Sequence record: MK524177.1
DNA length: 57,228 bases
Source: Escherichia phage PHB10
Direction: 5' to 3' (one strand)
Shown: positions 9,296 to 57,228 of the stretch, piece after piece
Layout: every line of letters starts with the position of its first letter
Position numbering within the stretch: position 1 is the first letter of the stretch
Notes under the pieces: generated by a model
What the model was told of the DNA's origin: nothing
What the model saw: the letters and a program-made list of their open reading frames with translations, nothing else
Database searches by the model: none
Translations under genes and position numbers: made by a program

Positions 9296-9330
9296 AATTT
9301 CCCCTCGGGATTTTGCCGGGCCTCGCCCAT

Positions 9331-23525: not shown

Positions 23526-23594
23526 ACATGTACCTTCTTTTTTAGCCTGTTGTGAATTGCTAGAGTGGCGCAACAATTCATGTAAGGCCAGATT

Positions 23595-24545: not shown

Positions 24546-24652
24546 TAGACGTATTTAGGCTGCTGTAATAAATACCAGAGTCTTTCTCCTGCCTACCCGA
24601 ATAGGTGATGAGAAAGACTCTGTTCCCCCTGTTGGCACTGATAGTAAAGCGG

Positions 24653-25513
24653 TTAAGCTGTGTGAGCTGAAAACCGGCTCTCCGGTAAACCGGGGAATAC
24701 GGCTGATTTCGCTCTTAGCAGCGCTCCATCATGCCTTGACGGCACAGAAAGACCCACGCTGGCACTAGTACAATACAGCGTTGTGAATGCTTCTCCCGCG
24801 AGTGTCGGGCAAGTGCTCTGAATTCCTGGGGAGGGCAGGATACGATCCGTCGTTCCGTCCGGACGATAACGTACAACACGGCTTCCTCCCCATTCGGCAT
24901 TCCAGATATAGCCCATTGCGTCCACGCAGGAGCCGTCAGGCGCCCCCTTTCCCTCTGTTGCAGTGAACACACGCTGGTTATTCATAGTGGGATAATCACA
25001 GCACAATATACGGCCCTGCATCGAGTCACAGTAATACATCGTGCTGCCGTCCGGACTGAAGCAGATGCTGTTCGGGATGGACACCTCAGGCAGGGGTAGC
25101 GTTTCAATGCTGAGTGTCGCTGCATTTAGCCTGTGAAATTTTCCGATGACTTTCGCGGGGTACCCGTCATCCATGGTCCCGAAGACGAAATTACCCTCAC
25201 GGTCGCACCGACCATCCCCTGTCCGTGTTCCCGGCCCTCCCGGTGACCCCACTACCGGTGTAAAGATACCCGTATTCAGATCGCAGAAGGCGAATCTGGA
25301 CGCCAGCCCCATCAGTAAAACGTCAGAATTTTCAGTAAGTGCAAACGATCCGAGGCGCTCAGGCAGCGACCAGCGCATCACAACACCGGTATCTTCTTCA
25401 AGGGCAAGCAGCTCGCTGCCTTCAATGTCAGTCCAATAAATCCTGCGAGTCCTCTCGCACCAGATTGGGCACTCTCCAAGCAAATTTCTGGTATCAGCAG
25501 CCACTGAAAACAT
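24653..25513 (-). CDS. SMP-30/gluconolactonase/LRE-family protein
   Basis: Beta-propeller-like repeats (GECPIW, DxxG motifs); start MFSVAADT at 25513 with GGGAGA SD. Confidence 0.75.
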   Translation of the reverse strand: MFSVAADTRNLLGECPIWCERTRRIYWTDIEGSELLALEEDTGVVMRWSLPERLGSFALTENSDVLLMGLASRFAFCDLNTGIFTPVVGSPGGPGTRTGDGRCDREGNFVFGTMDDGYPAKVIGKFHRLNAATLSIETLPLPEVSIPNSICFSPDGSTMYYCDSMQGRILCCDYPTMNNQRVFTATEGKGAPDGSCVDAMGYIWNAEWGGSRVVRYRPDGTTDRILPSPGIQSTCPTLAGEAFTTLYCTSASVGLSVPSRHDGALLRAKSAVFPGLPESRFSAHTA

Positions 25514-25611
25514 GTTATTTCTCCCGCATATAAAAGTTTCGCATCGCCTGAACAATAGCTTACGGCCATCTGCACTATGGCAGAGCGCCGTAAGGAGCAT
25601 TCCCCACCCTG

Positions 25612-26085
25612 TCAGGGCAAAAAACGCGCTGAAAGTTTGTCACCAAAAAGCATGATGGCGAGTCCTGCCAGCATGACCAGCATGCCCCCCAGTTTGAGCA
25701 GCGAAACCGGTCGCCTAACAGCACCCAGCAGACCGAAATGGTCAATCATTTGCGACGAGAGTAACTGCCCAACGATTGCCAGCCCTAGCAGAGCTGAAAA
25801 ACCGATTTTCGGTGCCAGCACTACGTAGCTGAATAACGCACAGGCACCGATCAGACCGCCCGCCAGACTCCACGCAGGCTGCGAAGGAATAGCAGCGAGA
25901 GAGGTAAATAACCCTCCACGAAGCAGCGAGTAAATCCCGAGACTCAACGCCCCGGCCGTAAATGAGAAGAATGCGGCGGTAACCGGGTCCCCCCCGAGTC
26001 CTTTTGCAAGCTGACTGTTCAGGGTCGTCTGCAGAGTAATACCAAGACCCGCTGCAAAAGCTATTACGTAATAAATCGCGCTCAT
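25612..26085 (-). CDS. small DMT-superfamily membrane transporter, putative
   Basis: 157 aa, four to five hydrophobic helices. Confidence 0.65.
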   Translation of the reverse strand: MSAIYYVIAFAAGLGITLQTTLNSQLAKGLGGDPVTAAFFSFTAGALSLGIYSLLRGGLFTSLAAIPSQPAWSLAGGLIGACALFSYVVLAPKIGFSALLGLAIVGQLLSSQMIDHFGLLGAVRRPVSLLKLGGMLVMLAGLAIMLFGDKLSARFLP

Positions 26086-26099
26086 GCTGTTTTTCCCTG

Positions 26100-27497
26100 T
26101 CAGTTTGCCTGTACCAGCGGCAGAAATTTCTCCGCAAAGATGTCCGGCTCATACCCGGCGGCAGCAAAAAGGTGTTCGCGTGATTCATCGATGGCAGCAC
26201 GAAGACGCTCGCTGTCCACGCCCAGAACTTTACCGTTCTTCTTGACGATGCGCCCGCCAATCATAACGGTATCGATGTTGCTGCGTTCAGTTGCATGCAC
26301 CACCGTCCCGAAGGCATTCCCGTTCGGGTAGAGATTGAGATCAGCAGCATTAATCAGGATCAGGTCGGCCTGTTTTCCTGGCGTCAGGCTACCCACTTTA
26401 TCCTGTAGCCCGGCACAGGTCGCACCATCGACGGTCGCCGACTTCAGCAGTTGCGCTGCCGGGAGCGTTGTTATTGAATGCCCTGAATCACAGCAGTGCT
26501 GCTTATGCATACCCATTACTCGCTGCAGATAGAACGCCACGCGCATTTCCATAAACATATCTGTGCTGTAAGACGTTTCGTTATCCACGCTCAGGCCAGG
26601 ATTGATGCCATGGCGCTGTGCGGCCTCAATGGCAAACATCCCGCTTTCAATGCCATAGTGCGAATCTGAGCGCGGACAGACGTTCACCCGTACGCCGGCT
26701 TCACGCAGGATTTCCCAGCCCTCATCAGGTAGTGCGGTACAGTGGTTGAAGATATTGTCCGGGCCAAGCAGACCCTGCCGATGCAGAGATTCAAGCTCGG
26801 AGGCCATCTCAGCACCAAAGAATTCGGTCACGATCGGCAACCCCAGCCTGCGCGCTTCAGCCCATAATTCTGGCTCCAGCTGAGCCATAACCCCCAAAGT
26901 CACAAGACCCTCTGGGTTATCCCTGAAATACTTTTCCTGCAGACGCTGCCAGTTACCTGGCCAATGTGCACGATCCCATTCACCCGCAACCGGTGCGCCG
27001 GAAGCATGAATGGCGCGAATGCCGCTATCAAGCAGAGCCTCGACTGCAGCGTCGGAATGCGCTGCGGTACGGCTGTTATGCGAGTTATCGATCATCGTAG
27101 TGATACCCGCGTCAATCGCGCCCAGCGCCGTCAGCAGGTTGCCGACATAGATATCTTCAGGACGGTAATATTTAGCGAACGAAAAGTGCGTGGCGTTGCT
27201 GTAGTCGTCCAGACAGGTGGCGTTGGGGTTGATGCGGCGTAGCTGACCTTCCCAGGCGTGACGATGAGAATCAACCATCCCAGGCATGGCAATCATATTT
27301 TTGGCATCAATAACACGAGCACCTGGCGCGTCAAGGTTCTGACCAACGGCGGTAATGATTGAGCCGTTGATGAGAATGTCACCGCGCTCAATATTACCGA
27401 CGCTATCGTCCATACTCAGTATGGTTGCGCCGCGAATCAGCGTTACCGGCGGGTTTTCCGTCTGTTTCTTAACAATATTTCTGTTGTAATTGGTCAT
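26100..27497 (-). CDS. amidohydrolase-family metal-dependent hydrolase (deaminase-like)
   Basis: 465 aa with metal-binding motif MPGMVDSHRHAWEGQ and conserved downstream His/Asp residues. Confidence 0.8.
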   Translation of the reverse strand: MTNYNRNIVKKQTENPPVTLIRGATILSMDDSVGNIERGDILINGSIITAVGQNLDAPGARVIDAKNMIAMPGMVDSHRHAWEGQLRRINPNATCLDDYSNATHFSFAKYYRPEDIYVGNLLTALGAIDAGITTMIDNSHNSRTAAHSDAAVEALLDSGIRAIHASGAPVAGEWDRAHWPGNWQRLQEKYFRDNPEGLVTLGVMAQLEPELWAEARRLGLPIVTEFFGAEMASELESLHRQGLLGPDNIFNHCTALPDEGWEILREAGVRVNVCPRSDSHYGIESGMFAIEAAQRHGINPGLSVDNETSYSTDMFMEMRVAFYLQRVMGMHKQHCCDSGHSITTLPAAQLLKSATVDGATCAGLQDKVGSLTPGKQADLILINAADLNLYPNGNAFGTVVHATERSNIDTVMIGGRIVKKNGKVLGVDSERLRAAIDESREHLFAAAGYEPDIFAEKFLPLVQAN

Positions 27498-27639
27498 TGT
27501 AATCGTCTCTTTCAGATTAAGAAGGAAAACGATACGCCTCCCGATTAAGATGAAAAAGATGACTAACGTGTTTTCATAATTCAGAATTAACGAATAATAA
27601 TGGTTAACAACTTTACACGATATTCAGGAGAGCAGTCAG

Positions 27640-28527
27640 GTGGATCGCATTCAGGCTATGCAGGTTTTTTTAAGGGTGGCTGAAGCCGGAAGCTTTGTCA
27701 GGGCAGCGGAAACACTGTCCCTGCCTTCCTCTACTGTTACCAGCACCATCAAAAACTTGGAGAAATATCTGCAGGTGCGTCTGCTCAACCGGACCACAAG
27801 GAGGGTCAGCCTTACGTCTGAAGGTCTGCAATACCTGGCGCAATGCAGGGAAATCCTTGCCTTAATTGAACATACTGAAGCCAGTCTGGCTGATTCGAAC
27901 AAGCGCCCCCGGGGCCGCTTACGCGTTGATATGCCCGGCGGTATAGCCCATTTCATCGTTATGCCAAATCTGAAAGAATTCTACAGCCGGTATCCTGATA
28001 TTTACCTGATGATCGGTGTCAGTGACCGGCAAGTTGATCTGGTTCAGGAGGGTGTGGATTGCGTGATCAGAACCGGAGATTTGCTTAGCTCAACACTTGT
28101 TGCCCGTCCGCTTGGGCAGTTCCGCTGGATCACCTGCGCCTCTCCCGAATATCTCAGAAAGTATGGTATTCCACAGTCACCTCAGGATTTATCTCATCAC
28201 AGGGCTATTCATTATTTTTCAGGGCAAAACCGACGTACAGACGAATTGCGTTTTGTACATGGAACAGAAACGCTGTCTGTATCCGTCAGCGGGCAGGCAG
28301 CCGTCAATGAGACGGGACTCTATATAAAAATGTGCCTCGAAGGGTTCGGACTGGCGCAGCTTGCTGAAAACGTTGTAGCAGAACACCTGCAAAAAGGAAC
28401 ACTGGTTGAAGTCCTGGCCGACTGGCAGCCGTCGTCTGTTCCTGTCACTTTGCTTTATCCCCATCAGCGTTTTCTTTCACCCGCCGTACGCGCATTTGCA
28501 GACTGGGTAGATGAAATCTTTAGTTGA
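27640..28527 (+). CDS. LysR-family transcriptional regulator
   Basis: N-terminal HTH (MQVFLRVAEAGSFVRAAETLSLPSSTVTSTIKNLEKYL) and LysR substrate-binding domain. Confidence 0.85.
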   Translation: MDRIQAMQVFLRVAEAGSFVRAAETLSLPSSTVTSTIKNLEKYLQVRLLNRTTRRVSLTSEGLQYLAQCREILALIEHTEASLADSNKRPRGRLRVDMPGGIAHFIVMPNLKEFYSRYPDIYLMIGVSDRQVDLVQEGVDCVIRTGDLLSSTLVARPLGQFRWITCASPEYLRKYGIPQSPQDLSHHRAIHYFSGQNRRTDELRFVHGTETLSVSVSGQAAVNETGLYIKMCLEGFGLAQLAENVVAEHLQKGTLVEVLADWQPSSVPVTLLYPHQRFLSPAVRAFADWVDEIFS

Positions 28528-28725
28528 TATGTCTGTTACAGCCACCCGAGCACATTAAAAGTCAGCAGTATTCAGGATACCTGGCAGGACGGCAGGCTTT
28601 GCTTCGCGGATGCGTCCATTCCGGAACGGCGGCTTCACAGGTAAAGAGCTGTACCCAAAAATTCAATTCTCCGTTTTAAAAGTAACGCCTCCGGCTAAGA
28701 ACCCCAGCCGCATCCGGGGCCTCTT

Positions 28726-29619
28726 TTAACTGAAATGTCTGAGTAAAATATCTTCAAGGATGTGAAAAACGGTCCTGATGCGTTGCGGTACAAGGGTCTG
28801 ATAGGGCCGGTAAAGATAAAGCTGCCAGGTTTCCAGTTTTAGTTCCGGTAAAACATTCACCAGCCTGCCGTCTTCGAGATATTCCCTGCAGGCCAGATTA
28901 CTCGACTGGATCACTACTTTACCGGCTAATGCAGCCTGAATCTCAGACTGGGAGTCGGTAGTAATAAATTCAAGATGTCGTGGTACAAAAGTATCGACGC
29001 CATCGAGCATATATTCGAATACTTTGCCGGTATCAGGATTCAACAGGCCACTGAAAGGATAGCGCTGGCGCAGATCGTCGAAATTTTCCGGCGCACCCAG
29101 CCGCTCAATGAGCCCGGGAGATGCCATCAGCGCGTGATGAACAAGCGTAATGGGCCTGATAATAAAGTTCGGATTTGGCTCCCGCTCAATACGGATCCCC
29201 ATGTCAATGCGGTTCTGAACAGTATCCAGCTTCATCATGTCCAGCCGCCAGTCTATAAACAGCTCAGGATAAGGACGAAGCGCATTCAGAAGCTCATAGA
29301 GTACCTGTTCGTGCCCGGGAAAGCGAAACAGGGTGATCCTCACAATCCCCTTCATCTCATTGTCATCTCTGGCCGTTTGAAACAGGGCCTCTGAATCCTC
29401 AAGCAAACGAAGGGCCCCCGGCAGGAAGAGCTCACCAAAGCTGGTCAGCACAATAGATCGGGTATTCCGCTTAAAAAGTGGCTCGCCGAGCTGATTTTCC
29501 AGTTCAGCAATAGTGCGCGTCACCACTGAAGGAGAAATGGCCAGTCTGACCGCTGCTTCACGAAAATTCATCGTTTCTGCAGCGGCAACAAAAAATTTCA
29601 GCGCATCTAGTTTATTCAT
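28726..29619 (-). CDS. LysR-family transcriptional regulator
   Basis: HTH LDALKFFVAAAETMNFREAAVRLAISPSVVTRTIAELE; divergent from the AKR operon; start probably 29619. Confidence 0.85.
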   Translation of the reverse strand: MNKLDALKFFVAAAETMNFREAAVRLAISPSVVTRTIAELENQLGEPLFKRNTRSIVLTSFGELFLPGALRLLEDSEALFQTARDDNEMKGIVRITLFRFPGHEQVLYELLNALRPYPELFIDWRLDMMKLDTVQNRIDMGIRIEREPNPNFIIRPITLVHHALMASPGLIERLGAPENFDDLRQRYPFSGLLNPDTGKVFEYMLDGVDTFVPRHLEFITTDSQSEIQAALAGKVVIQSSNLACREYLEDGRLVNVLPELKLETWQLYLYRPYQTLVPQRIRTVFHILEDILLRHFS

Positions 29620-29736
29620 GATTGTTGTTTTTTTAGCAATTCTGACTTTCAAAATTAACAATTTTTATGCAACAAATCCAGCCATATACTTAACCGCTCT
29701 AAAACATCACTGAGTTAAGAAAAGTCAGGATTCACT

Positions 29737-30702
<966 letters not shown>

Positions 30703-30717
30703 AAATAAGAGATCGAA

Positions 30718-31233
30718 ATGAAAACAACTGTATTTGTTACCCATCCCAATATTCATCTGTCCCGTGTTAACTCGGCGCTGGCAAATAGTGCAGCTTCACT
30801 GCCCGATATTAATGTACGTTATCTGTATGACATGTATCCGGATGGTAAAATCGACGTGGCCGCTGAACAGGCTGCGCTGGAAAATACCGATCGTATTGTG
30901 CTGCAGTTCCCGATGCAGTGGTACAGCACGCCGCCACTTCTCAAGCAGTGGCTTGATGATGTACTGACCTACGGCTGGTCACATGGTGGCGAAACTCAGG
31001 CGCTGCATGGCAAGCAACTCATGCTGGCAGTTTCGCTCGGTGGTGCTGAGTCTGCGTATCAGCCTGATGGAGCAGCCGGTCATACGGTTAGCGAATATCT
31101 GCTGTCCTTTGAAACAATCTCCGGGTATCTGGGTATGCATTATCTCAAGCCTTTCATTACCGGCGGAAGTGCGACGATCACCGACGGGGAAATTGCGGCA
31201 CAGGCTGAACGCTACAAAACGGTATTAGTCTGA
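30718..31233 (+). CDS. flavodoxin-like NAD(P)H-dependent oxidoreductase
   Basis: 171 aa, flavodoxin-fold-like; 15 nt downstream of the AKR gene (operon). Confidence 0.65.
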   Translation: MKTTVFVTHPNIHLSRVNSALANSAASLPDINVRYLYDMYPDGKIDVAAEQAALENTDRIVLQFPMQWYSTPPLLKQWLDDVLTYGWSHGGETQALHGKQLMLAVSLGGAESAYQPDGAAGHTVSEYLLSFETISGYLGMHYLKPFITGGSATITDGEIAAQAERYKTVLV

Positions 31234-31481
31234 TTAGCATCATGCATTCTTTCGATTATTAAAACGCTCTGATGTGCTGGTTGTCGCTGAGGATTATAAT
31301 TGTGGCAACCTGCACAACTATGGCTGCTGATGGCTGTTGTTACTGCCCTCAGCAAACACAAGATACCTGCCCCTACGCTTTGCCTTTCCGAGATAACGGG
31401 TGAAGATATCTGCTCCCCGTTGATTGACACAGAACGCTATTTGCAATGTTCGCTCCTCGCTCAAAGCGGACCAGTTCATCT

Positions 31482-32168
31482 CTATGCCCTCCCATCAGCC
31501 TTCATTCGCTCATATTTGGCTTTCAAAAGCTCCGCTGGAGTTGGCCCTTTCGATGCCACTGGCGCTGCCAGCGCCCTACGAACAGGCGGAATTGGCTTCC
31601 CGGACAGCACTCGCTTCTCCCACATACCCAGAATCTCGCCAGCCTCGCGCTCGAGCTCTTTCTGACACAACTGGCCATCGGTTCCGCGGCGACGCAGTTC
31701 GAGGCAGATGTGGTAAAAAACCGGCTTTGGCCAGGGATACTGCTCGCTGCTCGGGTACCGGAACACCAGCTTGCGCCACTTCCAGTATTCAGCCATCACG
31801 TCAGCGGTGGTGATCCCCAGCACACAGCGCCCTTCCCTGCACCACTTGATGAACTGGCCTGGCGAAGGCAGGAATGGACGCTCCTGACGACGCACCATGC
31901 GCATTCCCGCTTCAACCTGCTCCAGAGTGGTGATCCCGTTTTCTTTGAACGCCAGCACCCACTGACGGCGAATCTCGTTCACGTCTTCCTGGCTGCGGTT
32001 TACCAGGCTTGCCGGAAACGCAGCCGCCAGCTGTACGAATAGCCCGTTGATAATCTGGGCCACCTGCTGCGTTTGCTCGCGCTCGGTGTACTGCTCAGGC
32101 AGGTTATGCGCCACACGGCGAGCCTGTTCCCGGTCAAAATTGCGAATGCTCTCGGCAAGATTTTTCAT
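31482..32168 (-). CDS. replication protein P (helicase loader)
   Basis: Strong similarity to lambda P as I recall it (NFDREQ.RR.A.N.PEQY, QVAQIINGxF, RRQWVLAF.ENGITT, RPFLPSPGQF). Confidence 0.85.
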   Translation of the reverse strand: MKNLAESIRNFDREQARRVAHNLPEQYTEREQTQQVAQIINGLFVQLAAAFPASLVNRSQEDVNEIRRQWVLAFKENGITTLEQVEAGMRMVRRQERPFLPSPGQFIKWCREGRCVLGITTADVMAEYWKWRKLVFRYPSSEQYPWPKPVFYHICLELRRRGTDGQLCQKELEREAGEILGMWEKRVLSGKPIPPVRRALAAPVASKGPTPAELLKAKYERMKADGRA

Positions 32169-43738: not shown

Positions 43739-44037
43739 TTTACGAGACAAATATTTTCCTAATGGCAATCCAGATTTGACTATACAGGATTGGTTAATAA
43801 TAGCCAAACCTATTTTATTGGCCTTCCGGAAGGCTAAAATAAAATTTGCTTAATCTTTCAGCACGTGCCTTAATGGTTTGGCTGATTCATTGCGATGATG
43901 AATCTAACTTTTCCAAAAGCCGTTCTCATAACTAGGTGTTATCTCTGATATCCCTCCTTTTGAGTCCATACATATACCAGCATACGTTTCTTATCATGAG
44001 CTTGCTTGTCAGTTTGAAATGTTCAAACGGAGTTTGT

Positions 44038-44256
44038 ATGTCATCTAAAATCATAGGTCTTGTTAAGTGGTTTAACGAAGATAAGGGGTTTGGCTTTATC
44101 TCCCCACTTGATGGAAGTAAAGATGTTCTTGTTCACACTTCTTCCCTGCGGGGAGAAACATTTAATACTCTTTTTGAAGGACAAAAAGTCAAATTCGCTA
44201 TCATAGCTGGAACTAAAGGTCCAATCGCTGCCAATGTAACACTTTGCGATAGATAA
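44038..44256 (+). CDS. cold-shock-domain protein (CspA family)
   Basis: [35 protein letters not shown]; start 44038 with GGAG SD. Confidence 0.85.
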
Positions 44257-44497
44257 TTTTAGATGGTTTACTTAAGCCAGCATGACTTTATCAGTGAAAG
44301 GTGATGTTCGGTTACTCACATCATTACAACAGGCCAGCATATTTACTTACCATCAAGTTTGCTGACCGATGTGATGAAATGCAGGACTGCTGCATGAACA
44401 GTCTCAAAGCAGAAGCTAACTGCTTATAAAATACTAAAGTGCGTAAGAGGTTAGGCAGCCTCCAAAAGCATCACTTCTTATTTTTTAATAATTTTTT

Positions 44498-45550: not shown

Positions 45551-45926
45551 ACATCGTTATTTCAGCCTTCACCATCTCAAAATGCTGCGATCGTGAAAAC
45601 TGCGAAAGAAAATCATGAGGCACATCAGTAAATATTGTATCATTTGCTAAGCATTGCTGTTACATTCGGTTTAATGATGAATCCTCCTAAGCGGCAGGGC
45701 TAATTAACCTGATGATTTGTATATCAAGCGGCTCATCGTGAATTTCTGAAGCAGCGAGTCACGAGTGGTTAGGTCAATGACTCACCGGGAGGCACCCGGC
45801 ATCATATCCGTAAGCCCCTGTATAATTGCAGGGGCTTATTTACATTACAAAAGCATAGTCTTAGACATATTACTGTTAATACTCATAGCCGATAATTAGG
45901 CTCGAATGAATAGACCGTTTAAAGAA

Positions 45927-47195
45927 TCATCTAACTTTTATTAGGTCTGAATACCTCGTAGTATATCGTGGAGATAACATATCCCGTTTCATCTGCCACT
46001 GCTGCTGTATGCCCTGCCCGGCAAAGTAAAGCGTTCCTTTTCCATCTTTCGCGTTCAAGTGATCGAGCACCTCCATCAACTTATCGCTTCCTGCGCGTGG
46101 AGCGTTCTCATCGAAAAGGTTCAACTGCGCCACCCCTTGGCTGAAAAAATCTCCCAGCATGATTCCAGCCTTTTGATAGCGATAGCCATCCTTCCAGATT
46201 TTGTCCAGGCACTTTACCGCGGCGTTGATTATGTCGCGGGAATCCTGTGTAGGGGTGAGAAGCTTCATGGACGCGCTGTTACCGTAATATGGCTCGTTAA
46301 GCGCAAAGGGAGAGGTTTTCACGAACGCAGAAATAAAGCGGCAGTACTGATGCTCTCCCCGCAACTTTTCTGCGCCTCGGGCCGCATAACTGCAAATGGC
46401 CTGCCTCATTTGTTCGTAATCAGTGACGCGTTCACCGAATGACCTGCTACAGACGATCTCCTGCTTTGCCGGCGCAAATTCCTCCAGCTCGAGACAGGGC
46501 TCGCCGCGCAGCTCCCGGACAGTTCGCTCCAGGACGACATTAAAGTGTTTGCGGATAATCCACGTGCTTTGTTCAGAAAGGTCCAGAGCTGTTTTGATGC
46601 CCATGGCATTCAGCTTCTTACTGATGCGCCTGCCTACGCCCCATACATCTTCTACTGGCACGATGTCGAGCAATCGGCGCTGGCGGTCGATATTGGATAA
46701 ATCAACTACCCCTCCCGTTTGCCGCTGCCATTTCTTCGCGGCGTGGTTGGCCAGCTTGGCCAGTGTCTTTGTCTGGGCAATTCCAATCCCGACAGTCAGG
46801 TGCGTCCGCTTCAGAACGGTAGCGCGGATTTCTTTGCCGAACTCAGTAAGATCCCGGCAATTGCGAACACCTGTTAGGTCACAAAATGCTTCATCGATAC
46901 TGTAAATTTCTACGCGAGGGCTCAACTCCTCCAGTGTGGTCATTACTCGATTCGACATGTCTGCGTACAGCTCGTAGTTACTGCTGAAGCAAACAACCCC
47001 AGCGCGCCGAAATAAGTCCTTTTGCTTGAAGAAAGGCTCTCCCATTGTAATTCCAGCCGCCTTGGCCTCGGCGCTGCGCGCGATTACGCAGCCGTCATTG
47101 TTCGAAAGAACAACCACTGGCCGCCCTTTCAAATCGGGACGAAACACCGTCTCGCATGATGCGTAGAACGAATTCACGTCGCAGAGCGCAAACAT
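45927..47195 (-). CDS. umuC: translesion DNA polymerase V catalytic subunit UmuC
   Basis: Y-family polymerase N-terminus [15 protein letters not shown]; 422 aa; directly downstream of umuD. Confidence 0.9.
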
Positions 47196-47197: not shown

Positions 47198-47617
47198 TCA
47201 GCTCGCCGATTTGACGATGAAAGTAACAACGCCGAAAACGTCCAGCGTATCTTCGCTGCCTACAACAATCGGACTGTAGGCGCTATTCATTGGGATGAGT
47301 TGGACATTTGGACGCAACTGCAAACGCTTAACAGTGAATTCCCCTTCAACCGCGGCGATGACAATGTCACCGTGCTCAGCCGTGCGCGAACTATCCACCA
47401 CCAGCAGATCACCGTCGCTTATCCCGGCTTCGATCATTGAATCCCCCGCGGCTTTGACGAAATATGTAGAGCTCGGGTGAGCGACAAGTAACTCATTGAG
47501 ATCGATACGCTGTTCAACGTAATCAGCTGCGGGGCTTGGGAAACCACACTGTACTAAGTCACTGAAAAGCGGAAGAGCGATAATATCTCGCAGTTCTGTT
47601 GGCCTGATGAATTCCAT
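47198..47617 (-). CDS. umuD: UmuD (LexA-like S24 peptidase, polymerase V accessory subunit)
   Basis: 139 aa from MEFIRP; Ser-Lys dyad context (AAGDSM ... VKRL). Confidence 0.9.
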
Positions 47618-47632
47618 TGCACACACCTCAAA

Positions 47633-47652
47633 TACTGTTTTTATATACAGTA
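47633..47652 (-). promoter_or_regulatory. LexA (SOS) box upstream of umuDC
   Basis: TACTGTTTTTATATACAGTA fits CTGT-N8-ACAG, 16 nt upstream of the umuD start. Confidence 0.8.
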
Positions 47653-47858
47653 GTTTTATTTGTAAGTGTCCGCAAGATACAGGCCCTATCGTCACTGCTT
47701 AAAGCTTCGCCGTTTCGTTTCTAAGTTTATCTCTCGTTTCGAATTATCTCTTTTGTAAATTTTTCAATAATGGCGCAGATGTAAGCAGATTTGAGGGAGA
47801 CAAAGCCCGTTAAATGCCAGAACGGGCTGCGACTGAAAGCTAAGTCTTCATGATTCCG

Positions 47859-49420: not shown

Positions 49421-49447
49421 ATAAAAAACCCCGCCGAGGCGAGGTTT
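49421..49447 (-). terminator. terminator-like GC hairpin after the small lipoprotein gene
   Basis: GC hairpin followed on the minus strand by a U-run, just upstream of the fibre RBS. Confidence 0.4.
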
Positions 49448-49464: not shown

Positions 49465-49698
49465 TTATTTACATGTCGTGCTTGTGAATGTGTTCGCACT
49501 TACCCAACGCCAGTTGAAGGGATATCCGGCCCGGTATTGAGTCTGGTTGTTTTGTTTTCTAACGCCGTAAATCATAACGGTATTCTCATGGTCACCCATA
49601 TATGCCGTGCCGCTGCAAATAGGTTCCTGTTTCTCAAGTACACCAGCACAACCAGACAGCATTAAAGCGATCGCCATGCTGATAATTAGCCTTTTCAT
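49465..49698 (-). CDS. small lipoprotein (Cor/Llp-like superinfection-exclusion candidate)
   Basis: 77 aa, signal peptide with lipobox MKRLIISMAIALMLSGC, between tail tip genes and fibre. Confidence 0.5.
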   Translation of the reverse strand: MKRLIISMAIALMLSGCAGVLEKQEPICSGTAYMGDHENTVMIYGVRKQNNQTQYRAGYPFNWRWVSANTFTSTTCK

Positions 49699-50490: not shown

Positions 50491-50789
50491 GCATTCTCCA
50501 CGAAGACCACCAGTTCACATTCCGAGGCCGGATAATTACCAATACCAACTTCGCTGGCAGTGCTGAGAGTGATGGTGTTCCCGTTAGCGATAATGCGTCG
50601 ACCCACCGAGACCGCGCCCTTATCAAGGGACACCGCAAATCCGACCTTCATCCCCGCCGGAATGGTAAAGGACCAGTTGCCCGAGGTTTGCCCCTCGGAA
50701 AGCTGAATACGCCCTACCACTGATACGGGTTTGATACCGTAGTTGTTCGGGATGCCGTTGGCGTCCCAGGTCTGAATACCCCAGGCCAT
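50487..50789 (-). CDS. tail-associated protein of unknown function
   Basis: 100 aa; start overlaps the J stop. Confidence 0.4.
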   Translation of the reverse strand: MAWGIQTWDANGIPNNYGIKPVSVVGRIQLSEGQTSGNWSFTIPAGMKVGFAVSLDKGAVSVGRRIIANGNTITLSTASEVGIGNYPASECELVVFVENA

Positions 50790-53700
50790 TAAAACACTCC
50801 TGTAAGTTTGCCTATCTGAACACGGAGCCTGTTAGCATCCCGAATGCTGATGGTGACGTTAGTCTGCTTCATGCCTCCGGAACTGTCGCTCCCGTAGTTC
50901 TGCATCGTTCCGTCTTTACCCCAGCGCCAGCCAGCGCTTCCGGCAACATAATTATTAGACTGCAGAGAATCCGTAATTTTACCGAACTGGATACTCGCAT
51001 CACGGAAGAACGCATCATTGATGAATGTCTGCCCGTTCTGGATAACAAATGGCAAAGAAACAGTGCTGCCAGCTTGGGAGGTAACGGCAAAACGGTCGGC
51101 CAGGAAGATAACCTGTGACTGCATCCCTGATGGCGTATTCTCCACCCCGATCCCCATTCCTGCAGCGTAATACTGGCCATTACTCGTTACCCCAACTTTG
51201 ATGTTGTACATCGCGCTGAGCTGGCCGTTTACGTTCGCAATGGCCTGGGCGTTCGTGGTGATAGAGGCAGTATGTCCATTGACTGTCGCCGTAATAGCAT
51301 TTATCTGCGTGGCTGTAGACTGCTGATAATTCGAAACCGTATCGCTCAGGCTGTTGATGGATGCCGTATTACCGTTGACGTTCGTTTGCAGACTCAGCAA
51401 TGCGCGTGCCGTTGCCTCCCTGTCATTGACGATCACCTCATCAATGCGGTCTAGCTGCGCGCTGTTACCGGCAACCGAAGCCGACAGGGTTTTACGTGTG
51501 GCCACCTGAGCGAGGTTGGCCTGGATTATCGCAATTGCCGAGTTCTTCACGCCTCCTGTCATGCCGTCCATCGAAACAGAAATCTCGTCTATCTTCACTT
51601 CGGCCTGCGCCAGCCCGTCAGCGTTCTCCTGGATGTCTTTCGCCTGCTGCTCGAGCTCGTCGGCATGCTTTTTAATGTCATCCGCCATGCCTGCAACTTT
51701 TTCGTTGCTGTCCACTGCGTTCTCGATCAGGTCTTTGAAGGTATCAGAGTCTTTCATTCCCTCCAGAATCACATCGGTGATGTCAGAAACATCGATACTT
51801 GCCTGTCCTCGCACCCATTCTGTGTACCCTGATTCGTTGCCGCTGCGGTCCACCAGCTGCGCGCGGTACCAGAAAATCTGCTCAGCCTTAAGGCCCATCT
51901 GCTGATATTTGCGCTGCGGGTAAGGCACATCGGCCAGCAGCATCGCATCTTCTTCGGTACCAGTCAGGCTGTACTGAATTTCCGTCTTCAGCGTGTCGTC
52001 GGTATTCGCCGGGAATCCCCAGTTGAGCTCGATACCGAATACCACGCTTTCAGAAGCGATGAAGCCAACCGGCTTCGGTGGATTGCCCACTTTACCCGTC
52101 AGCGTTTTCTCTTCTGAATAGCCCCAGCCTGACGAAATTTCGGCAGCATTGATGGCGCGCACGCGCACCAGGTAGCGCCCGGCATAAATCCCCGGGACGT
52201 CGAATGATGTGGTGGAGCTGCGCGGCACGTTAACCCAGTTCCCGTCGTTGCGGCGCCATTGCGCTTCATAGGCGATAGCGTTCTGCGCCTGGTCCCAGCT
52301 CACGCGCATCGTTTCGACACTGATATTTTGCTGCACCACAGAAAACGAGCTGATGACGATGTTCGCAGGCGGCGACTGGTTGCCCGGCGGGATCACGCTC
52401 ACCGGCCGCTGGTCAATGATGGCTCCGGTATCAATGCGATCGAATTTATCCGGATCGTGATTTGCACCGACGATTGTGAACGTGCCGTCATTATTATCAG
52501 TTACTGTAATAACGCGATACTGCTGTGCGTAGAGCTCATCAGACTCAATGACCCATACGGCCTCGGCCTGTGGAAGCTCGCTAAAGGCGGTTGTCACGGT
52601 AACCATTCCACCTGACAGGGACTGAATCGTCCGGGATTGGGTAATACCCGACGGCAGGTTTACCATTATCCTGTCACCGGCCTTAGCACTTGGCACCCGG
52701 TCAAGTTTGAGTACACGACCATTAACCGCGGATAATCGACCGCCTAAATCTCGGCCAGAGAGATTTCGGTCAGCGACAGCAATTATGTAGCCAGGCTGAG
52801 GAATATTGCCGTCCAGACCAACGTCAAACGTTACAATCCTATCTTTATTGTTGGTCAGGATCCCCCAGCGCCCTTTCCTGTTAGCCTCAGATTGCCGGGT
52901 GCATCCGATAGCGGTGATCTCAAGCTGGTTGAAACCATAGCGCGCCACCAGAGCCTGCTCGAAGACGGGCTCCATTGCGTCAGCATAGCCATTTGCCGGA
53001 TCCGACCAGGAAACAAGAGCGTTTGTGTAGCGACTTTTAGTTGTGCTACTGGAATACACAAATTTGCCGTCAACTACGTTAGCGTGCGTGTAGGTAAAAT
53101 CGACATCTCTGGGCATGTCTGCAAGGGCAACAATCTGGTCGTCTCCCCAGTAGGTCATACCTCGAAAAATGGCGGCAAAGTCTCGCAGCACAGTGTAAGC
53201 GTCATTTCGATCTTGAATGTATACGTTGCAGGTGTAACGCGGTTCAGTTCCGCTCCCCCCCTTACCATCCGGTACCAGTTGATCACAATACTGAGCGACC
53301 TGATAAAGGGTCCATTTATCAATATTGGCTGCTGTTAGCCGATTACCAAGGCCGAAGCGGTCAGTGACTACCAGATCGTAAAATATCCACGCAGGGTTAT
53401 CCGTCCATGCCCACTTAAATGCTCCCGTCCAGGTGCCGCTGTACGTTCGTGTTTCTGGGTCATAGGTATCGGGCACACGAATAACACGCCCGCGGGGCTC
53501 GCAAGAAATTTGCGGAATTGAGCCATTGAACTGGCTCGAATCAAATTCGATGTACAGTAGCGCGGTGTTCGGATAGCGCAATTTGGCGTCGATTACTTCT
53601 GTGAAGCTTTGCAGCGTCATCGTGTCGCCAATCTTAGCGCTATTTGCGTCTGCGGTAATCTTGCGCAGCCTGATGGTCCAGGTGCTGCCCGCCTGAGGTA

Positions 53701-54238
53701 AATCAATACGGTGGCTGCGTTCATAACCAGAGGTGGTTTTCCCGGTCACGCTGGTATTTAGCACCGTCTGCCAGGTACCGCCATCTGTCTGCAGGTCAAA
53801 TGCGTAGTTGACCGAATAGCCAACCAGATCGCCATCGTCCTCCTGTTTGAAGAGAGAAGGCCATTTTAGACGCAGGCGAACAGCTGAAAGCTGCGTATTG
53901 GTGAACGTGCGCGTCCACGCTGTAGAGCTGGAAACTTCGGAACCTACATTGATTTCATTTTCGGTACCTGGGATCCCTTGAATGTATTTTTGCGCCTGAG
54001 TTCCAGAACGAAACTCCCACGCCACGCCGCTGAAGTTCTGTGAACCATCTGCGTTCTCAAGTGCGGTGCCATCGAGATAAATATCGCGCGCAGTAAGTCC
54101 ACCAGCAAACTCCCCCTCTCCCAGCGCGAGAAGGATTTTTGCCTTGGCAACTGACTGCAGGTCGTCTGGCTGTTCTGTAGGAGTTCTTGAGCTTGAACTG
54201 CCGCCCTTGCGGCCTTTAATAGCGGTTGCTATAGCCAT
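50789..54238 (-). CDS. host specificity / central tail fibre protein J
   Basis: 1149 aa; lambda J-like length, composition and position after I. Confidence 0.9.
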   Translation of the reverse strand: MAIATAIKGRKGGSSSSRTPTEQPDDLQSVAKAKILLALGEGEFAGGLTARDIYLDGTALENADGSQNFSGVAWEFRSGTQAQKYIQGIPGTENEINVGSEVSSSTAWTRTFTNTQLSAVRLRLKWPSLFKQEDDGDLVGYSVNYAFDLQTDGGTWQTVLNTSVTGKTTSGYERSHRIDLPQAGSTWTIRLRKITADANSAKIGDTMTLQSFTEVIDAKLRYPNTALLYIEFDSSQFNGSIPQISCEPRGRVIRVPDTYDPETRTYSGTWTGAFKWAWTDNPAWIFYDLVVTDRFGLGNRLTAANIDKWTLYQVAQYCDQLVPDGKGGSGTEPRYTCNVYIQDRNDAYTVLRDFAAIFRGMTYWGDDQIVALADMPRDVDFTYTHANVVDGKFVYSSSTTKSRYTNALVSWSDPANGYADAMEPVFEQALVARYGFNQLEITAIGCTRQSEANRKGRWGILTNNKDRIVTFDVGLDGNIPQPGYIIAVADRNLSGRDLGGRLSAVNGRVLKLDRVPSAKAGDRIMVNLPSGITQSRTIQSLSGGMVTVTTAFSELPQAEAVWVIESDELYAQQYRVITVTDNNDGTFTIVGANHDPDKFDRIDTGAIIDQRPVSVIPPGNQSPPANIVISSFSVVQQNISVETMRVSWDQAQNAIAYEAQWRRNDGNWVNVPRSSTTSFDVPGIYAGRYLVRVRAINAAEISSGWGYSEEKTLTGKVGNPPKPVGFIASESVVFGIELNWGFPANTDDTLKTEIQYSLTGTEEDAMLLADVPYPQRKYQQMGLKAEQIFWYRAQLVDRSGNESGYTEWVRGQASIDVSDITDVILEGMKDSDTFKDLIENAVDSNEKVAGMADDIKKHADELEQQAKDIQENADGLAQAEVKIDEISVSMDGMTGGVKNSAIAIIQANLAQVATRKTLSASVAGNSAQLDRIDEVIVNDREATARALLSLQTNVNGNTASINSLSDTVSNYQQSTATQINAITATVNGHTASITTNAQAIANVNGQLSAMYNIKVGVTSNGQYYAAGMGIGVENTPSGMQSQVIFLADRFAVTSQAGSTVSLPFVIQNGQTFINDAFFRDASIQFGKITDSLQSNNYVAGSAGWRWGKDGTMQNYGSDSSGGMKQTNVTISIRDANRLRVQIGKLTGVF

Positions 54239-54245
54239 ATTGCGC

Positions 54246-54270
54246 CCATAAAAAAAGCCACCGGGAGGTG
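54246..54270 (-). terminator. intrinsic terminator-like hairpin between I and J
   Basis: gccacc-tccc-ggtggc followed on the minus strand by U7, 10 nt upstream of the J start. Confidence 0.45.
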
Positions 54271-54288
54271 GCTTGTTGATAAATCTAT

Positions 54289-54891
54289 TTACTGTTGGTC
54301 TTCTACATAGATACCGGCGGAGATGATCGCGCCACCTATACGGCGCCGTCCGTACAAGAGTGGTACCGGATTGCCCTGAGCTGTCGTATTTGTTACTCCA
54401 CCAAAGGCATAACTGGCCTTGTTGTCTGCCGATTGCTTGCTGGCAAGTCCGGTTGTCTGTGGAGAAAGCATTTGAACGACACCGCCAAGGGCCATCGCAG
54501 CGCCAAATTGCATTAGAGGAACGCCGACAGCACCACCGCCAAAGTATGACGCCACAGCACCAACTGCGACCAAAGCCACACCTAAGATGGTCTGGAATAC
54601 TCCACCACGTTTACTCCCGAGGATAACCGGCGCGATACGGATATCAGCGGTACTCTGATCCATAGAGAGTTCATCATCGTTCAGGTTACGCTTACCGCTG
54701 AATACAGCGTAAGTAAGCCCACGCTGCTTGCTGGTATTCAAAAACCGCTCGAAGCCTGGCACTATAACGCACAATGCACGGATGGCTTCTTTAGGCGAAG
54801 CAACAGAAAGTTTGAATTCACGACCAAATGTTGAGCCAAGTATTCCATAGAGGCGTATGGTTCTCATCGGCTGACCAGTTAAAAATGTCAT
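54289..54891 (-). CDS. tail assembly protein I
   Basis: Lambda gpI-like; likely start MTFLTGQ at 54891 with GGAGG SD. Confidence 0.8.
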   Translation of the reverse strand: MTFLTGQPMRTIRLYGILGSTFGREFKLSVASPKEAIRALCVIVPGFERFLNTSKQRGLTYAVFSGKRNLNDDELSMDQSTADIRIAPVILGSKRGGVFQTILGVALVAVGAVASYFGGGAVGVPLMQFGAAMALGGVVQMLSPQTTGLASKQSADNKASYAFGGVTNTTAQGNPVPLLYGRRRIGGAIISAGIYVEDQQ

Positions 54892-54985
54892 ACATGCCTC
54901 CAAAGTCTCTCTTGACTAAGAGAGACTATTAATGTTGATAGACTTTTTGATGTTTTTAACACGCAATCCAAGAATTCAAATCAAC

Positions 54986-55597
54986 TTACTTATTTTTGGC
55001 TGACGGATTAGCAACTTCTGGGTGTTTTTTATTGAATTCTATAAAGCTACTTGGGCATTCCTTTGAAAGTAAATAATAATTTACTAAACATGCATCCGCC
55101 TTAGCTTCATCGCTCGAATGATACACACCATCTGCCAAAGATAATGTCGGAGCTAAATACCTGGCTTTAATCAACTCTTGCCCCAACGCCAAAGCATCCT
55201 TAGAAGTAGCTGCTGAACAAGACGTAACAGCACCGTCAAATAACGTCTTATTACCTTTGCAATTTAAGGACGCATCTAAGAAGGACTCGTGTAAATCGGT
55301 GCGCACTTGAATAAATGCAGGATCAGTAATATTTGAACCAGCCAAGATCCCTATCAGACCTAACCCACCTCCGATTGTAGCAATGGCTGAACCATTGGCG
55401 AGGTTCAAATCTCCCCATACCAACCATCGCAACAGGAAAAAACTCACTGCTACGGACGTTATCAAATATCCAAACCCAGTCCATAGATTGTGACTGTGCC
55501 CGAAGAAACTCAAGCATGCAAGCCCGACCCCAACGACAAATGGAACGCAGACAACGACCATTTTAATATAAAAATTATTCAAGTTGACAAATGCCAC
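54986..55597 (-). CDS. membrane protein of unknown function (moron inserted between K and I)
   Basis: About 3 N-terminal TM helices plus soluble C-terminal domain; AT-rich by eye; lambda K and I are adjacent; start uncertain (GTG 55597 or ATG 55561). Confidence 0.5.
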   Translation of the reverse strand: MAFVNLNNFYIKMVVVCVPFVVGVGLACLSFFGHSHNLWTGFGYLITSVAVSFFLLRWLVWGDLNLANGSAIATIGGGLGLIGILAGSNITDPAFIQVRTDLHESFLDASLNCKGNKTLFDGAVTSCSAATSKDALALGQELIKARYLAPTLSLADGVYHSSDEAKADACLVNYYLLSKECPSSFIEFNKKHPEVANPSAKNK

Positions 55598-55633
55598 ATT
55601 AATATCCGTTAATGAAGTAAGTTGGGCTCATTA

Positions 55634-56347
55634 TTATATAAACTTCGATTGATGGCGAAGGATTTTGTTTGTCCTCTCACGCCAATATCCACCATATGGC
55701 ACACGCTGGCTTAAATGACCGTAAAGATGATGAAGTAAGATATCACCTTCAAGCAATATGCCGGCATGGTTCCACTTGTTAGACTGAACTTGCATGATCA
55801 CCATATCCCCCGGTTGCAGCGGCCCGTCGAATTCACGGAAACCACACTCATACCAGCAATCCTGATAGAAATTGTCCAGATAGCAGTCCTCCCACCACGG
55901 ATAATCAACACGGTAATCTTTCAATTCGATACCATGTTCCTGCCTGTAATAGCTCATCACCAGTCCCCAACAGTCATAGTGTCCAAGCACAAACGGCCGC
56001 CCGATCAGTGGCAAATCACCGCGGGGAGTGATGGTGCGAAAGTCGCCTTCCGGCCAACTGACAATATGCCAGGGCAGCAACGTTGCATCGCATTGAGCCT
56101 TGTCCAGTTCGCTTGGTTGGGTTGTCGCGTCAGGGTGACTATGTACGATTCCCGTTATCGTCCCCCAGTCTTCAGCAGCGGCGTAATCCTCTGGTGAAAG
56201 GTGAAACTGTTCCGTTGGTTCAGCAGCCAGATTACGGCATGGAAAATAGCGTTCCACCCGGCTTTTCTGCGCTATCACGCCGCAGCATTCGTGGGGATAG
56301 TCTTTCGCAGCATGTGACAGGATGTCCTGAATTGTTTTCTGACGCAT
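55634..56347 (-). CDS. tail assembly protein K (JAB/MPN plus NlpC/P60 domains)
   Basis: JAMM motif HSHPDATTQPSELD and NlpC/P60-like Cys in YDCWGLV. Confidence 0.85.
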   Translation of the reverse strand: MRQKTIQDILSHAAKDYPHECCGVIAQKSRVERYFPCRNLAAEPTEQFHLSPEDYAAAEDWGTITGIVHSHPDATTQPSELDKAQCDATLLPWHIVSWPEGDFRTITPRGDLPLIGRPFVLGHYDCWGLVMSYYRQEHGIELKDYRVDYPWWEDCYLDNFYQDCWYECGFREFDGPLQPGDMVIMQVQSNKWNHAGILLEGDILLHHLYGHLSQRVPYGGYWRERTNKILRHQSKFI

Positions 56348-56348: not shown

Positions 56349-57104
56349 TTAACTCCTGATCAAAGATGTTCCCGGAAAACCACCGAAAGGAAGTTCATTG
56401 TGTTCACCAAACCGAAGCTTGCAGGCGGTGAGCGTGCCGTTGCATTCATCCAATGAGGGATCGCTTACCGGATTGTTGTTTCTGTCGAAGTAAAGCGTGC
56501 CGGCATAATCGCACCCATCGCCGGTGCGGTACCTATTCCGGATGCACCATGTGCAAAGGGAATGCAACTGTCTGGTCGGAATCATCAATCCCTGCAGATC
56601 CATCGGGCTGGTAAGAACAAACTCGATACTTTCACCGGGAAGCTCACTATTTTTACCGTCGATATAGAAAACCCGCTTCCTCACCTGCAAGGGATCTGCT
56701 GTTGGATTTCCATCCGAGAAATTGCGCGCATCCAGGTAATGCGCAAAAGTGTCATGAATCGTAACTTTGGCCTGCAGCATATCGTCATAGGCCAGACAGA
56801 GCGCAGTGATAGAGCTGTCAATGTTGGCGACGGTGAGCGTCGGCTGGGCGCTACTGCCATCGGTTGACGCTTCCAGTCCCTCGAGCTTATATGGCCAGGC
56901 ACCATACTCTTCGCCCTGCCACCAGATACTCTTCGCCTTTAACTTTGATTCGTCGCCGCCAGCAGCCGCAATCTCTTCTTCAGTATGCGGGAGGTTATAA
57001 GCGTGAAAGCGCAGAACGTCGTCCAGACCAAACGCAGAACCGTCTACCTCAAGAAGACGTATTTTTTCACCCGGTTCGAGGTGTTGATAATCTTCAGTAA
57101 TCAT
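56349..57104 (-). CDS. minor tail protein L
   Basis: 251 aa with C-terminal Cys cluster CTWC...C...C as in lambda gpL; start overlaps the M stop (ATGA). Confidence 0.85.
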   Translation of the reverse strand: MITEDYQHLEPGEKIRLLEVDGSAFGLDDVLRFHAYNLPHTEEEIAAAGGDESKLKAKSIWWQGEEYGAWPYKLEGLEASTDGSSAQPTLTVANIDSSITALCLAYDDMLQAKVTIHDTFAHYLDARNFSDGNPTADPLQVRKRVFYIDGKNSELPGESIEFVLTSPMDLQGLMIPTRQLHSLCTWCIRNRYRTGDGCDYAGTLYFDRNNNPVSDPSLDECNGTLTACKLRFGEHNELPFGGFPGTSLIRS

Positions 57105-57228
57105 GGTGCGTATGCCTGTTTGAAGGTTGCTTTTATAGTCATCACTTTGCTGGATAGCGGCTGGACTTTAATGGAATCAGCTTCAATCCGGTATAAACCG
57201 GTTTCGCCGACAGGAGACGTCCAGATAA
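57105..57228 (-). CDS. minor tail protein M, C-terminal portion (gene start lies beyond window end)
   Basis: Open frame ...IWTSPVGETGLYRIEADSIKVQPLSSKVMTIKATFKQAYAP* ending at TGA overlapping the L start; resembles the lambda gpM C-terminus as I recall it. Confidence 0.6.

Follow-up and report, generated by a model that had tools for sequence, protein, structure and literature searches.

The 50-nt intergenic gap between tail genes I and J of Escherichia phage PHB10 encodes an RNA hairpin that adjoins a run of seven U. This element is probably a Rho-independent terminator of the late strand, homologous to the corresponding element of HK97, N15, HK633 and HK75, fixed to J behind a slot for cargo genes, stopping unmodified RNA polymerase and crossed by way of the antiterminator Q. 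Since the homologous hairpin is already annotated in HK97, N15 and HK633/HK75 (and an analogue of it in T1), its occurrence at I|J is ordinary and does not amount to a discovery. What is mildly new is the arrangement: the terminator stays with the essential gene that follows it, whereas the cargo before it is replaced, and T1-like virulent phages have a terminator-plus-promoter version of the same boundary.

It is textbook matter that lambdoid late operons contain intrinsic terminators, that these are associated with morons and that Q overrides them. Q and N modify RNA polymerase so that it overrides terminators, over long distances in the case of Q (PMC7547250), and the λ late genes are transcribed into a single Q-dependent mRNA of ~27 kb (PMC10695390). 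Morons bring their own promoter and terminator, and can in this way be expressed while the prophage is repressed (PMC3594210).

The I|J hairpin and its setting

The window (the whole stretch of DNA that was analysed, 57,228 nt of sequence record MK524177.1) presents the I|J junction on its minus strand, in the following order of transcription:

54289..54891, minus: gene for tail assembly protein I (phrog_32 at 3e-77), with its ATG at 54891 after GGAGG and its stop codon at 54291..54289
54275..54288, minus: empty cargo (moron) slot, 14 variable nt that separate the stop codon of I from the stem
54255..54274, minus: putative I|J terminator stem-loop, AAGCCACC-UCCC-GGUGGCUU, 8 bp with 5 G-C pairs and a tetraloop (5' arm AAGCCACC at 54274..54267, loop UCCC at 54266..54263, 3' arm GGUGGCUU at 54262..54255)
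54250..54256, minus: U-tract of 7 T, read directly from the sequence
54239..54249, minus: J leader of 11 nt, AUGGGCGCAAU, from the end of the U-tract up to the ATG of J
50789..54238, minus: gene for host-specificity/central tail fibre protein J (phrog_31 and phrog_2589, E = 0), with its ATG at 54238..54236

The stem begins 14 nt past the I stop codon, and the first two T of the run are able to pair with the AA at the base of the stem. The initial annotation had placed this structure at 54246..54270, which is essentially the right position; it had clipped 4 nt of the 5' arm and had omitted the strand. The genes that it had named on either side (I and J here, a MuF-like gene and a scaffold gene elsewhere) are also those found by PHROG matches, the latter two being phrog_241 and phrog_206, respectively.

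The sequence features by which an intrinsic terminator is recognized are all found here: a G+C-rich stem of 5-14 bp with a short loop, an adjoining U-tract, and a location outside coding sequence in the orientation of the late genes. On folding, the stem-loop is assigned -13.2 kcal/mol (z = -2.34; 3 of 200 shuffled sequences are equally stable), and the hairpin is recovered by a strict scan for terminators, at a dG of -12.6, as well as by a pattern scan. The element is one-directional because the plus-strand side reads GTTGAT; a bidirectional I|J terminator is ruled out by this absence of a T-run on the plus-strand side. Only 11 nt separate the T-run from the ATG of J, so that a promoter for J has no room and expression of J must rely on readthrough. 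(The Shine-Dalgarno-like element of the J leader is weak, being limited to GGG.) We infer from these features of the sequence that the I|J hairpin terminates transcription of the late strand. A scan of the whole window against Rfam at gathering thresholds assigned no family to this hairpin or to the three others that are discussed below.

Two further features of the junction were considered and set aside. A second hairpin, over the start of J, is predicted, and requires codons 2-3 of the window's own J gene, which are not conserved in relatives. A short open reading frame that starts with the ATG just after the U-run (AUG GGC GCA AUA UGG ...) might have served as a device for translational coupling, and neither its length nor the position of its stop codon is conserved: it has 6 codons here and 11 in the commonest variant, is open through all 20 readable codons in N15, and has its ATG replaced by CTG in several λ-type loci.

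The window is a circularly permuted lambdoid genome, in which gene M starts with GTG at 150, passes position 1 and resumes at 57228. On the late strand the order is cII-O-P, NinB and RusA; Q; holin, endolysin, spanin and terminase; portal, MuF, scaffold and capsid; and the tail genes, J, cor and the tail fibre gene. Integrase, RecT and a RecE-like exonuclease are encoded on the opposite strand. The lysis, head and tail genes constitute one co-oriented minus-strand block that extends from the holin gene at 16857 to the tail fibre gene at 47859 across the window ends, and it is within this single late block that the canonical terminator signatures lie, as the initial annotation had maintained. 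(Among cultured phages none is closely related in the head region, the best match being to Klebsiella prophages, with 79% identity over 20% of the query.) The elements ahead of the block, and a gene that lies just upstream of I, bear on how it may be transcribed:

18747..19580, minus: Q-type late antiterminator gene (PF03589, 'Antitermination protein Q', 2e-45; phrog_127, 3e-103)
18639..18664, minus: tR'-like strong terminator, 83 nt past the Q stop codon (strict scan, dG -17.2)
54986..55597, minus: low-GC gene in the slot between K and I, ~191-203 aa, moron-like cargo (GC 0.37-0.44, flanks 0.51-0.55)

The Q protein of phage 82 belongs to the PF03589 family; that of λ is not known to do so. 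The tR'-like terminator is preceded by a promoter-like TTTACT...TGgTAATTT (read by eye, unscored), and three more canonical terminators lie upstream of the holin gene. Q, promoter-like sequence, terminator and downstream block together have the appearance of a Q-antiterminated late operon, and the layout resembles that of λ, in which Q, PR' and tR' serve a long Q-dependent late operon that crosses terminators. Readthrough of the I|J hairpin under the control of Q is what established lambdoid biology would best lead one to infer.

The gene in the K|I slot has no match in PHROG, Pfam or NCBIfam (I, Q and the cargo-like genes likewise received no name from NCBIfam). A promoter-like site precedes it at 55658..55630, with only 9/12 matches to consensus. 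It has no canonical terminator of its own, the sole structure before I being a U-less 10-bp hairpin at 54927..54904; its transcript would therefore meet no canonical stop before the putative I|J terminator. In a lysogen, unmodified RNA polymerase would halt at the I|J hairpin, ahead of the 3.4-kb J gene and what lies beyond it; the halted polymerase could originate at a cargo promoter, most likely, in this phage, at the promoter-like site of the K|I-slot gene, and by terminating at I|J it would be kept out of J. During lytic growth, Q-modified polymerase coming from the late promoter would pass I|J along with the other terminators of the late operon, and J, for lack of room for its own promoter, would depend on this readthrough. 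In relatives with low-GC cargo between I and the hairpin, the cargo may use the I|J hairpin as its only terminator. No transcript data or 3'-end mapping for the I|J hairpin in this phage or its relatives were found in the searchable literature. A reading of the hairpin in terms of prophage small RNAs was discarded: the sRNAs of Tree et al. (PMC4104026) are at the moron site of PR' and not at I|J. The λ sRNA study also reports nothing at I|J.

All four hairpin-plus-U-run structures listed by the initial annotation are present, on the minus strand, which is the coding strand of the late genes. The three others, with the cargo genes that precede two of them, are:

9331..9356, minus: putative MuF-like/scaffold terminator, GCCCUGGC-AUCC-GCCGGGGC followed by U6 (-17.5 kcal/mol; stem-loop 9356..9337, T6 9336..9331)
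164..187, minus: putative terminator after the DUF6694 lipoprotein gene and before M (GTG at 150) (-11.8 kcal/mol; stem-loop 187..170 followed by a T-run)
204..1007, minus: DUF6694 lipoprotein gene (PF20404)
49421..49447, minus: putative terminator after cor and before the tail fibre gene (ATG at 49406) (-14.3 kcal/mol; stem-loop 49447..49426 followed by T6)
49465..49698, minus: cor superinfection-exclusion gene (phrog_1119)

The MuF|scaffold hairpin lies between the stop codon of the MuF-like gene at 9376 and the ATG of the scaffold gene at 9295. Comparison of the window with its shuffled counterparts distinguishes such structures from chance occurrences. With the strict definition (one compact hairpin with 5 pairs or more, dG <= -8 kcal/mol, and 5 or more consecutive T directly against it), 12 sites are found, as against 0.99 +/- 0.98 in 200 dinucleotide-preserving shuffles (maximum 5), a 12-fold enrichment; at dG <= -10 the numbers are 11 and 0.36 +/- 0.57. 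A looser pattern scan reveals no enrichment (19 sites, 17.9 in shuffles), and the departure from randomness is therefore limited to the high-quality class. In the structural-gene part of the late operon, all four strict sites are on the coding strand and all four are intergenic, in a region of which intergenic gaps make up ~4% (an estimate from ORF coordinates).

A conserved unit in front of J and a variable slot before it

Relatives were compared in two sets that amount together to ~200 contigs. The first consists of 80 IMG/VR contigs with relatives of I that are 75-100% identical; 77 of these were scorable, and N15, HK633 and HK75 bring the number of junctions to 80. The hairpin directly follows I, at a distance of 14-20 nt, in 40 of the 80, while in 39-40 an insert of 317, 689, 823, 863 or 1056 nt separates it from the I stop codon. 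The unit of hairpin, T-run and ATGGGCGCAAT-ATG nevertheless abuts J in all junctions except one, in which the J start is probably mis-called. The second set comes from a scan for the exact 28-nt cassette, with at least 120 further contigs listed: J is downstream in 120 of 120 among these listed matches, and of the 108 listed contigs in which I was found, 76 have an empty slot and 32 an occupied one. (What this means for the slot is that it is occupied in roughly 30-50% of relatives, with inserts that range from 317 to ~1400 nt.) The inserts are of low GC content (0.34-0.41, as against 0.50-0.56 in the flanks) and fall into six or more kinds that are unrelated to each other; a UPF0257 lipoprotein and a putative AbiC-like abortive-infection protein (PF16872) are among their products. 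As J is always downstream of the cassette and the cargo is in front of it, the terminator belongs to the 5' flank of J: hairpin, U7 and leader are a unit fixed to J, and the bases between the I stop codon and the hairpin are the cargo slot.

In two insert-bearing loci (L012 and L030), the conserved hairpin is the only terminator-like site past the cargo, and a consensus scan of the same two loci discerned no convincing promoter between I and the start of the cargo. In another (L047), the cargo ORF overlaps the I stop codon (ATGA) and looks translationally coupled to I.

Sequence conservation follows the same boundaries. Pairwise identity among 62 distinct junctions averages 86.8% over the 39 nt that extend from the hairpin to the ATG, as against 83-85% in adjacent coding sequence and 59% in the 14 nt just upstream of the hairpin. 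The stem core GCCACC/GGTGGC is nearly invariant in 25 distinct relatives, while the loop is variable and takes at least eight forms, including TCCC, TCCG, TTCG, TCAG, TCTG and CTAG. In alignment A1 the T-run has five invariant columns and two that are nearly invariant; the leader is likewise invariant or nearly so. Codons 2-8 of J vary, at least 12 N-terminal variants being found behind an identical cassette among the contigs listed. Covariation in the N15/HK97-type group is weak: one compensatory change from A-U to G-C and some G-U wobbles, with 92% of cells paired and a score that is matched by 47 of 500 shuffles. Close homologues alone therefore do not prove the structure, and conservation of the stem could come in part from recent common descent or from linkage to J. 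Hairpins that appear to have arisen independently at the same site, as far as their unrelated stems indicate, constitute a stronger argument than covariation among close homologues.

Hairpins at I|J are found in other phages, homologous ones among them. By megablast the I|J region had no match in the phage collection, and relatives were found only in distant mode and in E. coli genomes; the distant-mode search matches 66 phage records, of which several annotate a terminator under the match. HK97 (NC_002167), which shares the lambdoid late operon of the window, has a 'terminator, putative' at 15107..15129, 11 nt before J as in the window. Its GCCACC-TTTG-GGTGGC followed by T6, ATGGACGCGAT and ATG is homologous with the window's GCCACC-TCCC-GGTGGC followed by T7, ATGGGCGCAAT and ATG. 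Two genes, gp22 ('moron product') and gp23 ('reverse moron product'), occupy the slot of HK97 and HK022, whereas that of the window is empty. The slot is also empty in HK633 (JQ086377) and HK75 (HM173637), which carry annotated terminators both before and after I. N15 (AF064539) has a stem_loop at 15307..15330, designated 'putative rho-indep. transcription terminator', between its genes 20 (I) and 21 (J). N15 and the window are homologous in hairpin, T-run and leader, both have an empty slot, and DNA identity is ~73% across I and the start of J. N15 differs from the window in having no cargo in the K|I slot and in being a linear plasmid prophage, whereas the window encodes integrase.

T1 (AY216660) has a 'terminator, rho-independent' at 24972..24994 between its I and J homologues, in the same gap and with the same geometry as in the window. 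In T1 and its Drexlerviridae relatives, which are virulent phages, the stem is unrelated to that of the window (CCCGCC/GCGGG in T1). Hairpins with U-runs and unrelated stems occupy the I|J gap of T1, Rtp, GH-K3, BEK12B, mEp043, a Pseudomonas phage and an Stx phage, and unrelated ones are found in λ and PP9W2 too. In EP23, phi644-2 and KW1E, I and J overlap and there is no hairpin. In λ, the I|J gap is 60 nt long and contains AAACCGCC-NNNN-GGCGGTTT, the stem being invariant and the loop variable in 80 λ-like contigs. The λ U-run is interrupted (UUUUGUCAUUU) and the hairpin is therefore possibly a poor terminator; no annotation of it, and no experiment on it, was found.

Junctions recovered with the I protein of T1 are nearly all T1-like, and 51 of 59 distinct ones have a terminator. 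(RNAalifold on 16 T1-like junctions gave 5 pairs only and no covariation, the MAFFT alignment having put the arms out of register; the T1-like junctions were scored by per-sequence folding instead.) Nearly all T1-like junctions with a terminator have TATAAT or TACAAT a few bases past the U-run and ~45 nt before J. Thus J looks separately promoted in these phages, whereas the window has no room for such a promoter. N15, which has no cargo on either side of I, and the virulent T1-like phages keep a hairpin; insulation of cargo therefore cannot be its only or its original role. A somewhat comparable arrangement, in a system with a different tail type and unrelated sequences, may be seen in the high-turnover cargo site of a late operon that lies before a receptor-binding protein gene.

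The MuF|scaffold hairpin appears to be the same kind of element at another empty slot. It is present in all 76 related loci with a locatable scaffold start, and changes in its stem are mostly wobble-compatible. Beyond its 5' edge, on the upstream side, the loci differ far more from each other, and two of them have unrelated sequence there. In a Klebsiella phage whose scaffold-capsid region is 79% identical, the stem differs (AGGCTGCC/GGCGGCCT), the leader downstream of it is homologous, and MuF is separated from the hairpin by an inserted gene of 79 aa. The contrast that the initial annotation drew between 'operon-internal' and 'moron' terminators accordingly does not hold, in that the relatives place the I|J and MuF|scaffold hairpins among the cargo-slot terminators as well. 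The four hairpins can be thought of as one class, judging by what precedes them, with two of the slots occupied in this phage (by the lipoprotein gene and by cor) and two of them empty.

Other readings of the element

Several other functions can be envisaged for the hairpin. Q-modified polymerase might partly terminate at it, in which case it would be a leaky attenuator that sets how much J, and how much of the downstream fibre or cargo gene products, is made for a given amount of the upstream tail proteins. We consider this doubtful. Retention of the hairpin in the cargo-free N15 and in most T1-like junctions is consistent with such a role, as is a weaker hairpin with U6 downstream of the major tail protein gene (4653..4636), which is a classic position for dosage control; on the other hand, Q-modified polymerase overrides terminators over long distances (PMC7547250). 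Moreover, the conserved TATAAT after the T1-like terminator suggests that termination there is efficient, with re-initiation at J in place of attenuation. The tail-tip proteins on either side are all required in similarly few copies, and there is therefore no obvious step in dosage to be made at I|J. The proposal of the initial annotation that such hairpins set the stoichiometry of tail proteins has found nothing in its support. Alternatively, the element may act in the RNA, the hairpin shielding upstream mRNA from 3' exonucleases or serving the initiation of J translation, with the U-run as an enhancer of ribosome binding. The T-run and the 11-nt leader are conserved like coding sequence, yet codons 2-8 of J vary, and J has upstream of it only the weak GGG, both of which would suit a role in translation. 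Nevertheless, this reading is quite unlikely: the geometry is exactly that of an intrinsic terminator, two cargo loci in relatives have no other terminator, and the hairpin over the J start depends on codons that are specific to the window.

It is improbable, in turn, that the cassette acts at the level of DNA as a short patch of homology for recombination at a module boundary, the hairpin being incidental. In the I|J hairpin as in the MuF|scaffold hairpin, divergence does set in sharply at the 5' edge, while hairpin and leader stay conserved, and one contig (L326) joins a divergent I protein, 44% identical to that of T1, to the same cassette. Against this, the loop varies freely and the stem does not, which suggests selection on pairing more than on sequence identity as such, and unrelated stems occupy the same site in other phage groups. 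The attenuator, RNA-level and recombination readings are each compatible with termination. Finally, that the hairpin is there by chance and without function deserves practically no credence, even though the loose scan of the window yields no excess of sites over shuffled sequence: strict sites are enriched 12-fold, ~200 contigs have conserved the element, and other lineages have independent equivalents of it in the same gap. A terminator fixed to J, which stops unmodified polymerase and is crossed with Q, is the reading that we prefer.

Terminators as possible boundaries of virion modules

A wider proposition can be put forward tentatively, as a possibility that we consider less likely than not to be right in full: the terminators before J and before the scaffold gene may be an old, lineage-spanning boundary between transcription units of the λ-type virion modules, rather than a by-product of morons, with a promoter-added form in T1-like phages, a promoterless form in temperate phages that have Q, and a docking site for cargo. 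On this proposition, virulent T1-like phages would have added a promoter at the boundary, whereas temperate Q-using phages would rely on antitermination without one. The downstream gene being already insulated, the bases in front of the terminator would be a preferred docking site for swaps of defence and other cargo.

The preferred reading of I|J as a terminator of unmodified polymerase predicts a lysogenic transcript that would start before the K|I-slot gene, run across I and end at ~54250. The practical use of the comparison is as a handle by which cargo and defence slots may be spotted in related prophages. If the old-boundary proposition is true, 'a conserved terminator glued to an essential late gene' would become a rule for locating hotspots of cargo and defence genes in uncultivated phage genomes.

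Genome layout and cargo outside the tail operon

Gene M, which encodes a minor tail protein, starts with GTG at position 150 of the minus strand, crosses position 1 and resumes at the opposite end of the window (1..150 and 57101..57228). The window is therefore a complete lambdoid genome, circularly permuted. The vegetative order of b-region, integrase and recombination genes is found within it.

The interval from the gene of the late antiterminator Q to the holin gene (16900..18670) contains four canonical late-strand terminators, with a tRNA and an Rfam match to STnc100 among them. This layout resembles that of the convergent prophage sRNAs at the moron (cargo) site of PR', the late promoter site of lambdoid phages (PMC4104026).

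Features of the Q-to-holin interval
18664..18639, late strand, canonical terminator
17910..17889, late strand, canonical terminator
17807..17880, tRNA
17258..17463, STnc100 match (Rfam)
17288..17269, late strand, canonical terminator
17118..17146, plus strand, convergent hairpin with T6
16921..16902, late strand, canonical terminator

Replication gene P is separated from NinB by ~9.5 kb of metabolic-looking genes, an odd and unusually large cargo for a nin region. In the b-region, Rfam matches to the cspA thermoregulator and to a second copy of STnc100 adjoin umuC-like and probable umuD-like genes. Elsewhere, a 31-nt stretch, TGCTCTTGCCGACGAGGGGCAGTCTCTTTCT, is present in two identical copies 115 nt apart (14934..14954 and 15049..15069), both within a single ORF (14588..15082, phrog_13619), which suggests an internal duplication.

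Features of the nin region and b-region
20148..20750, NinB
21791..21812, two-way terminator flanking the metabolic-looking block
21900..31450, metabolic-looking block, including an esterase (phrog_3341), an amidohydrolase (PF01979) and an aldo/keto reductase (PF00248)
31482..32168, replication gene P
43911..44310, plus strand, cspA thermoregulator match (79.5 bits)
45642..45843, plus strand, second STnc100 copy (52.7 bits)
45927..47195, umuC-like gene
47198..47695, probable umuD-like gene

Further hairpins of the late operon

Two more hairpins are found among the tail genes.

Additional hairpins
4636..4653, minus strand, GCCUCU-CAUAAU-GGAGGC with U6, a fifth and weaker structure of its kind
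4679..5413, major tail protein gene (phrog_584)
54904..54927, perfect 10-bp hairpin, AGUCUCUCUU-AGUC-AAGAGAGACU

The first (-9.1 kcal/mol, equalled in stability by 0 of 200 shuffles) lies directly 3' of the major tail protein gene and 5' of the tail assembly chaperone gene; the initial annotation did not list it. The second (-13.9 kcal/mol, likewise equalled in none of 200 shuffles) lies between tail gene I and the cargo gene of the K|I slot, and is not followed by a U-run. The GGAGG Shine-Dalgarno sequence of I begins 2 nt past its end, and relatives with the same K|I slot content (L012) retain it. Weak terminator, RNA stabiliser and processing site are candidate roles.

Terminator flanks and the I|J junction

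At several terminators the T-run is followed by (A/G)TGGG(C/G)G. The I|J (54244..54256) and MuF|scaffold (9325..9336) terminators both run on into TTTTTTATGGGCG, and the lambda lom terminator (in the lom-stf gap, L005) into TTTTTTGTGGGGTGAATATGG. The HK97 K|I-slot terminator (L257 2800..2840) consists of AACCACC-TACG-GGTGGTT, a T-run, ATGGGGGCAGC and ATG, and is, by eye, ~75% identical to that phage's own I|J cassette. Terminator-leader cassettes with this common flank could share an origin, or merely common constraints.

In virulent T1-like phages (L259..L319), a highly conserved TATAAT or TACAAT occurs 6-10 nt past the I|J terminator (e.g. L087 1498..1545), followed by a conserved AGCACAAAAGG box 5' of J. 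With this pairing of terminator and putative promoter, J looks like a transcription unit of its own.

Relatives carry cargo in the I|J slot (L072 3166..3927, L012 3139..3873, L070 3169..4110). It includes one putative AbiC-like abortive-infection protein (PF16872, 4e-20) and a UPF0257 lipoprotein (PF06788), together with several proteins that have no family match. On the strength of this AbiC-like and other cargo, tail-operon slots may be sites for defence genes.
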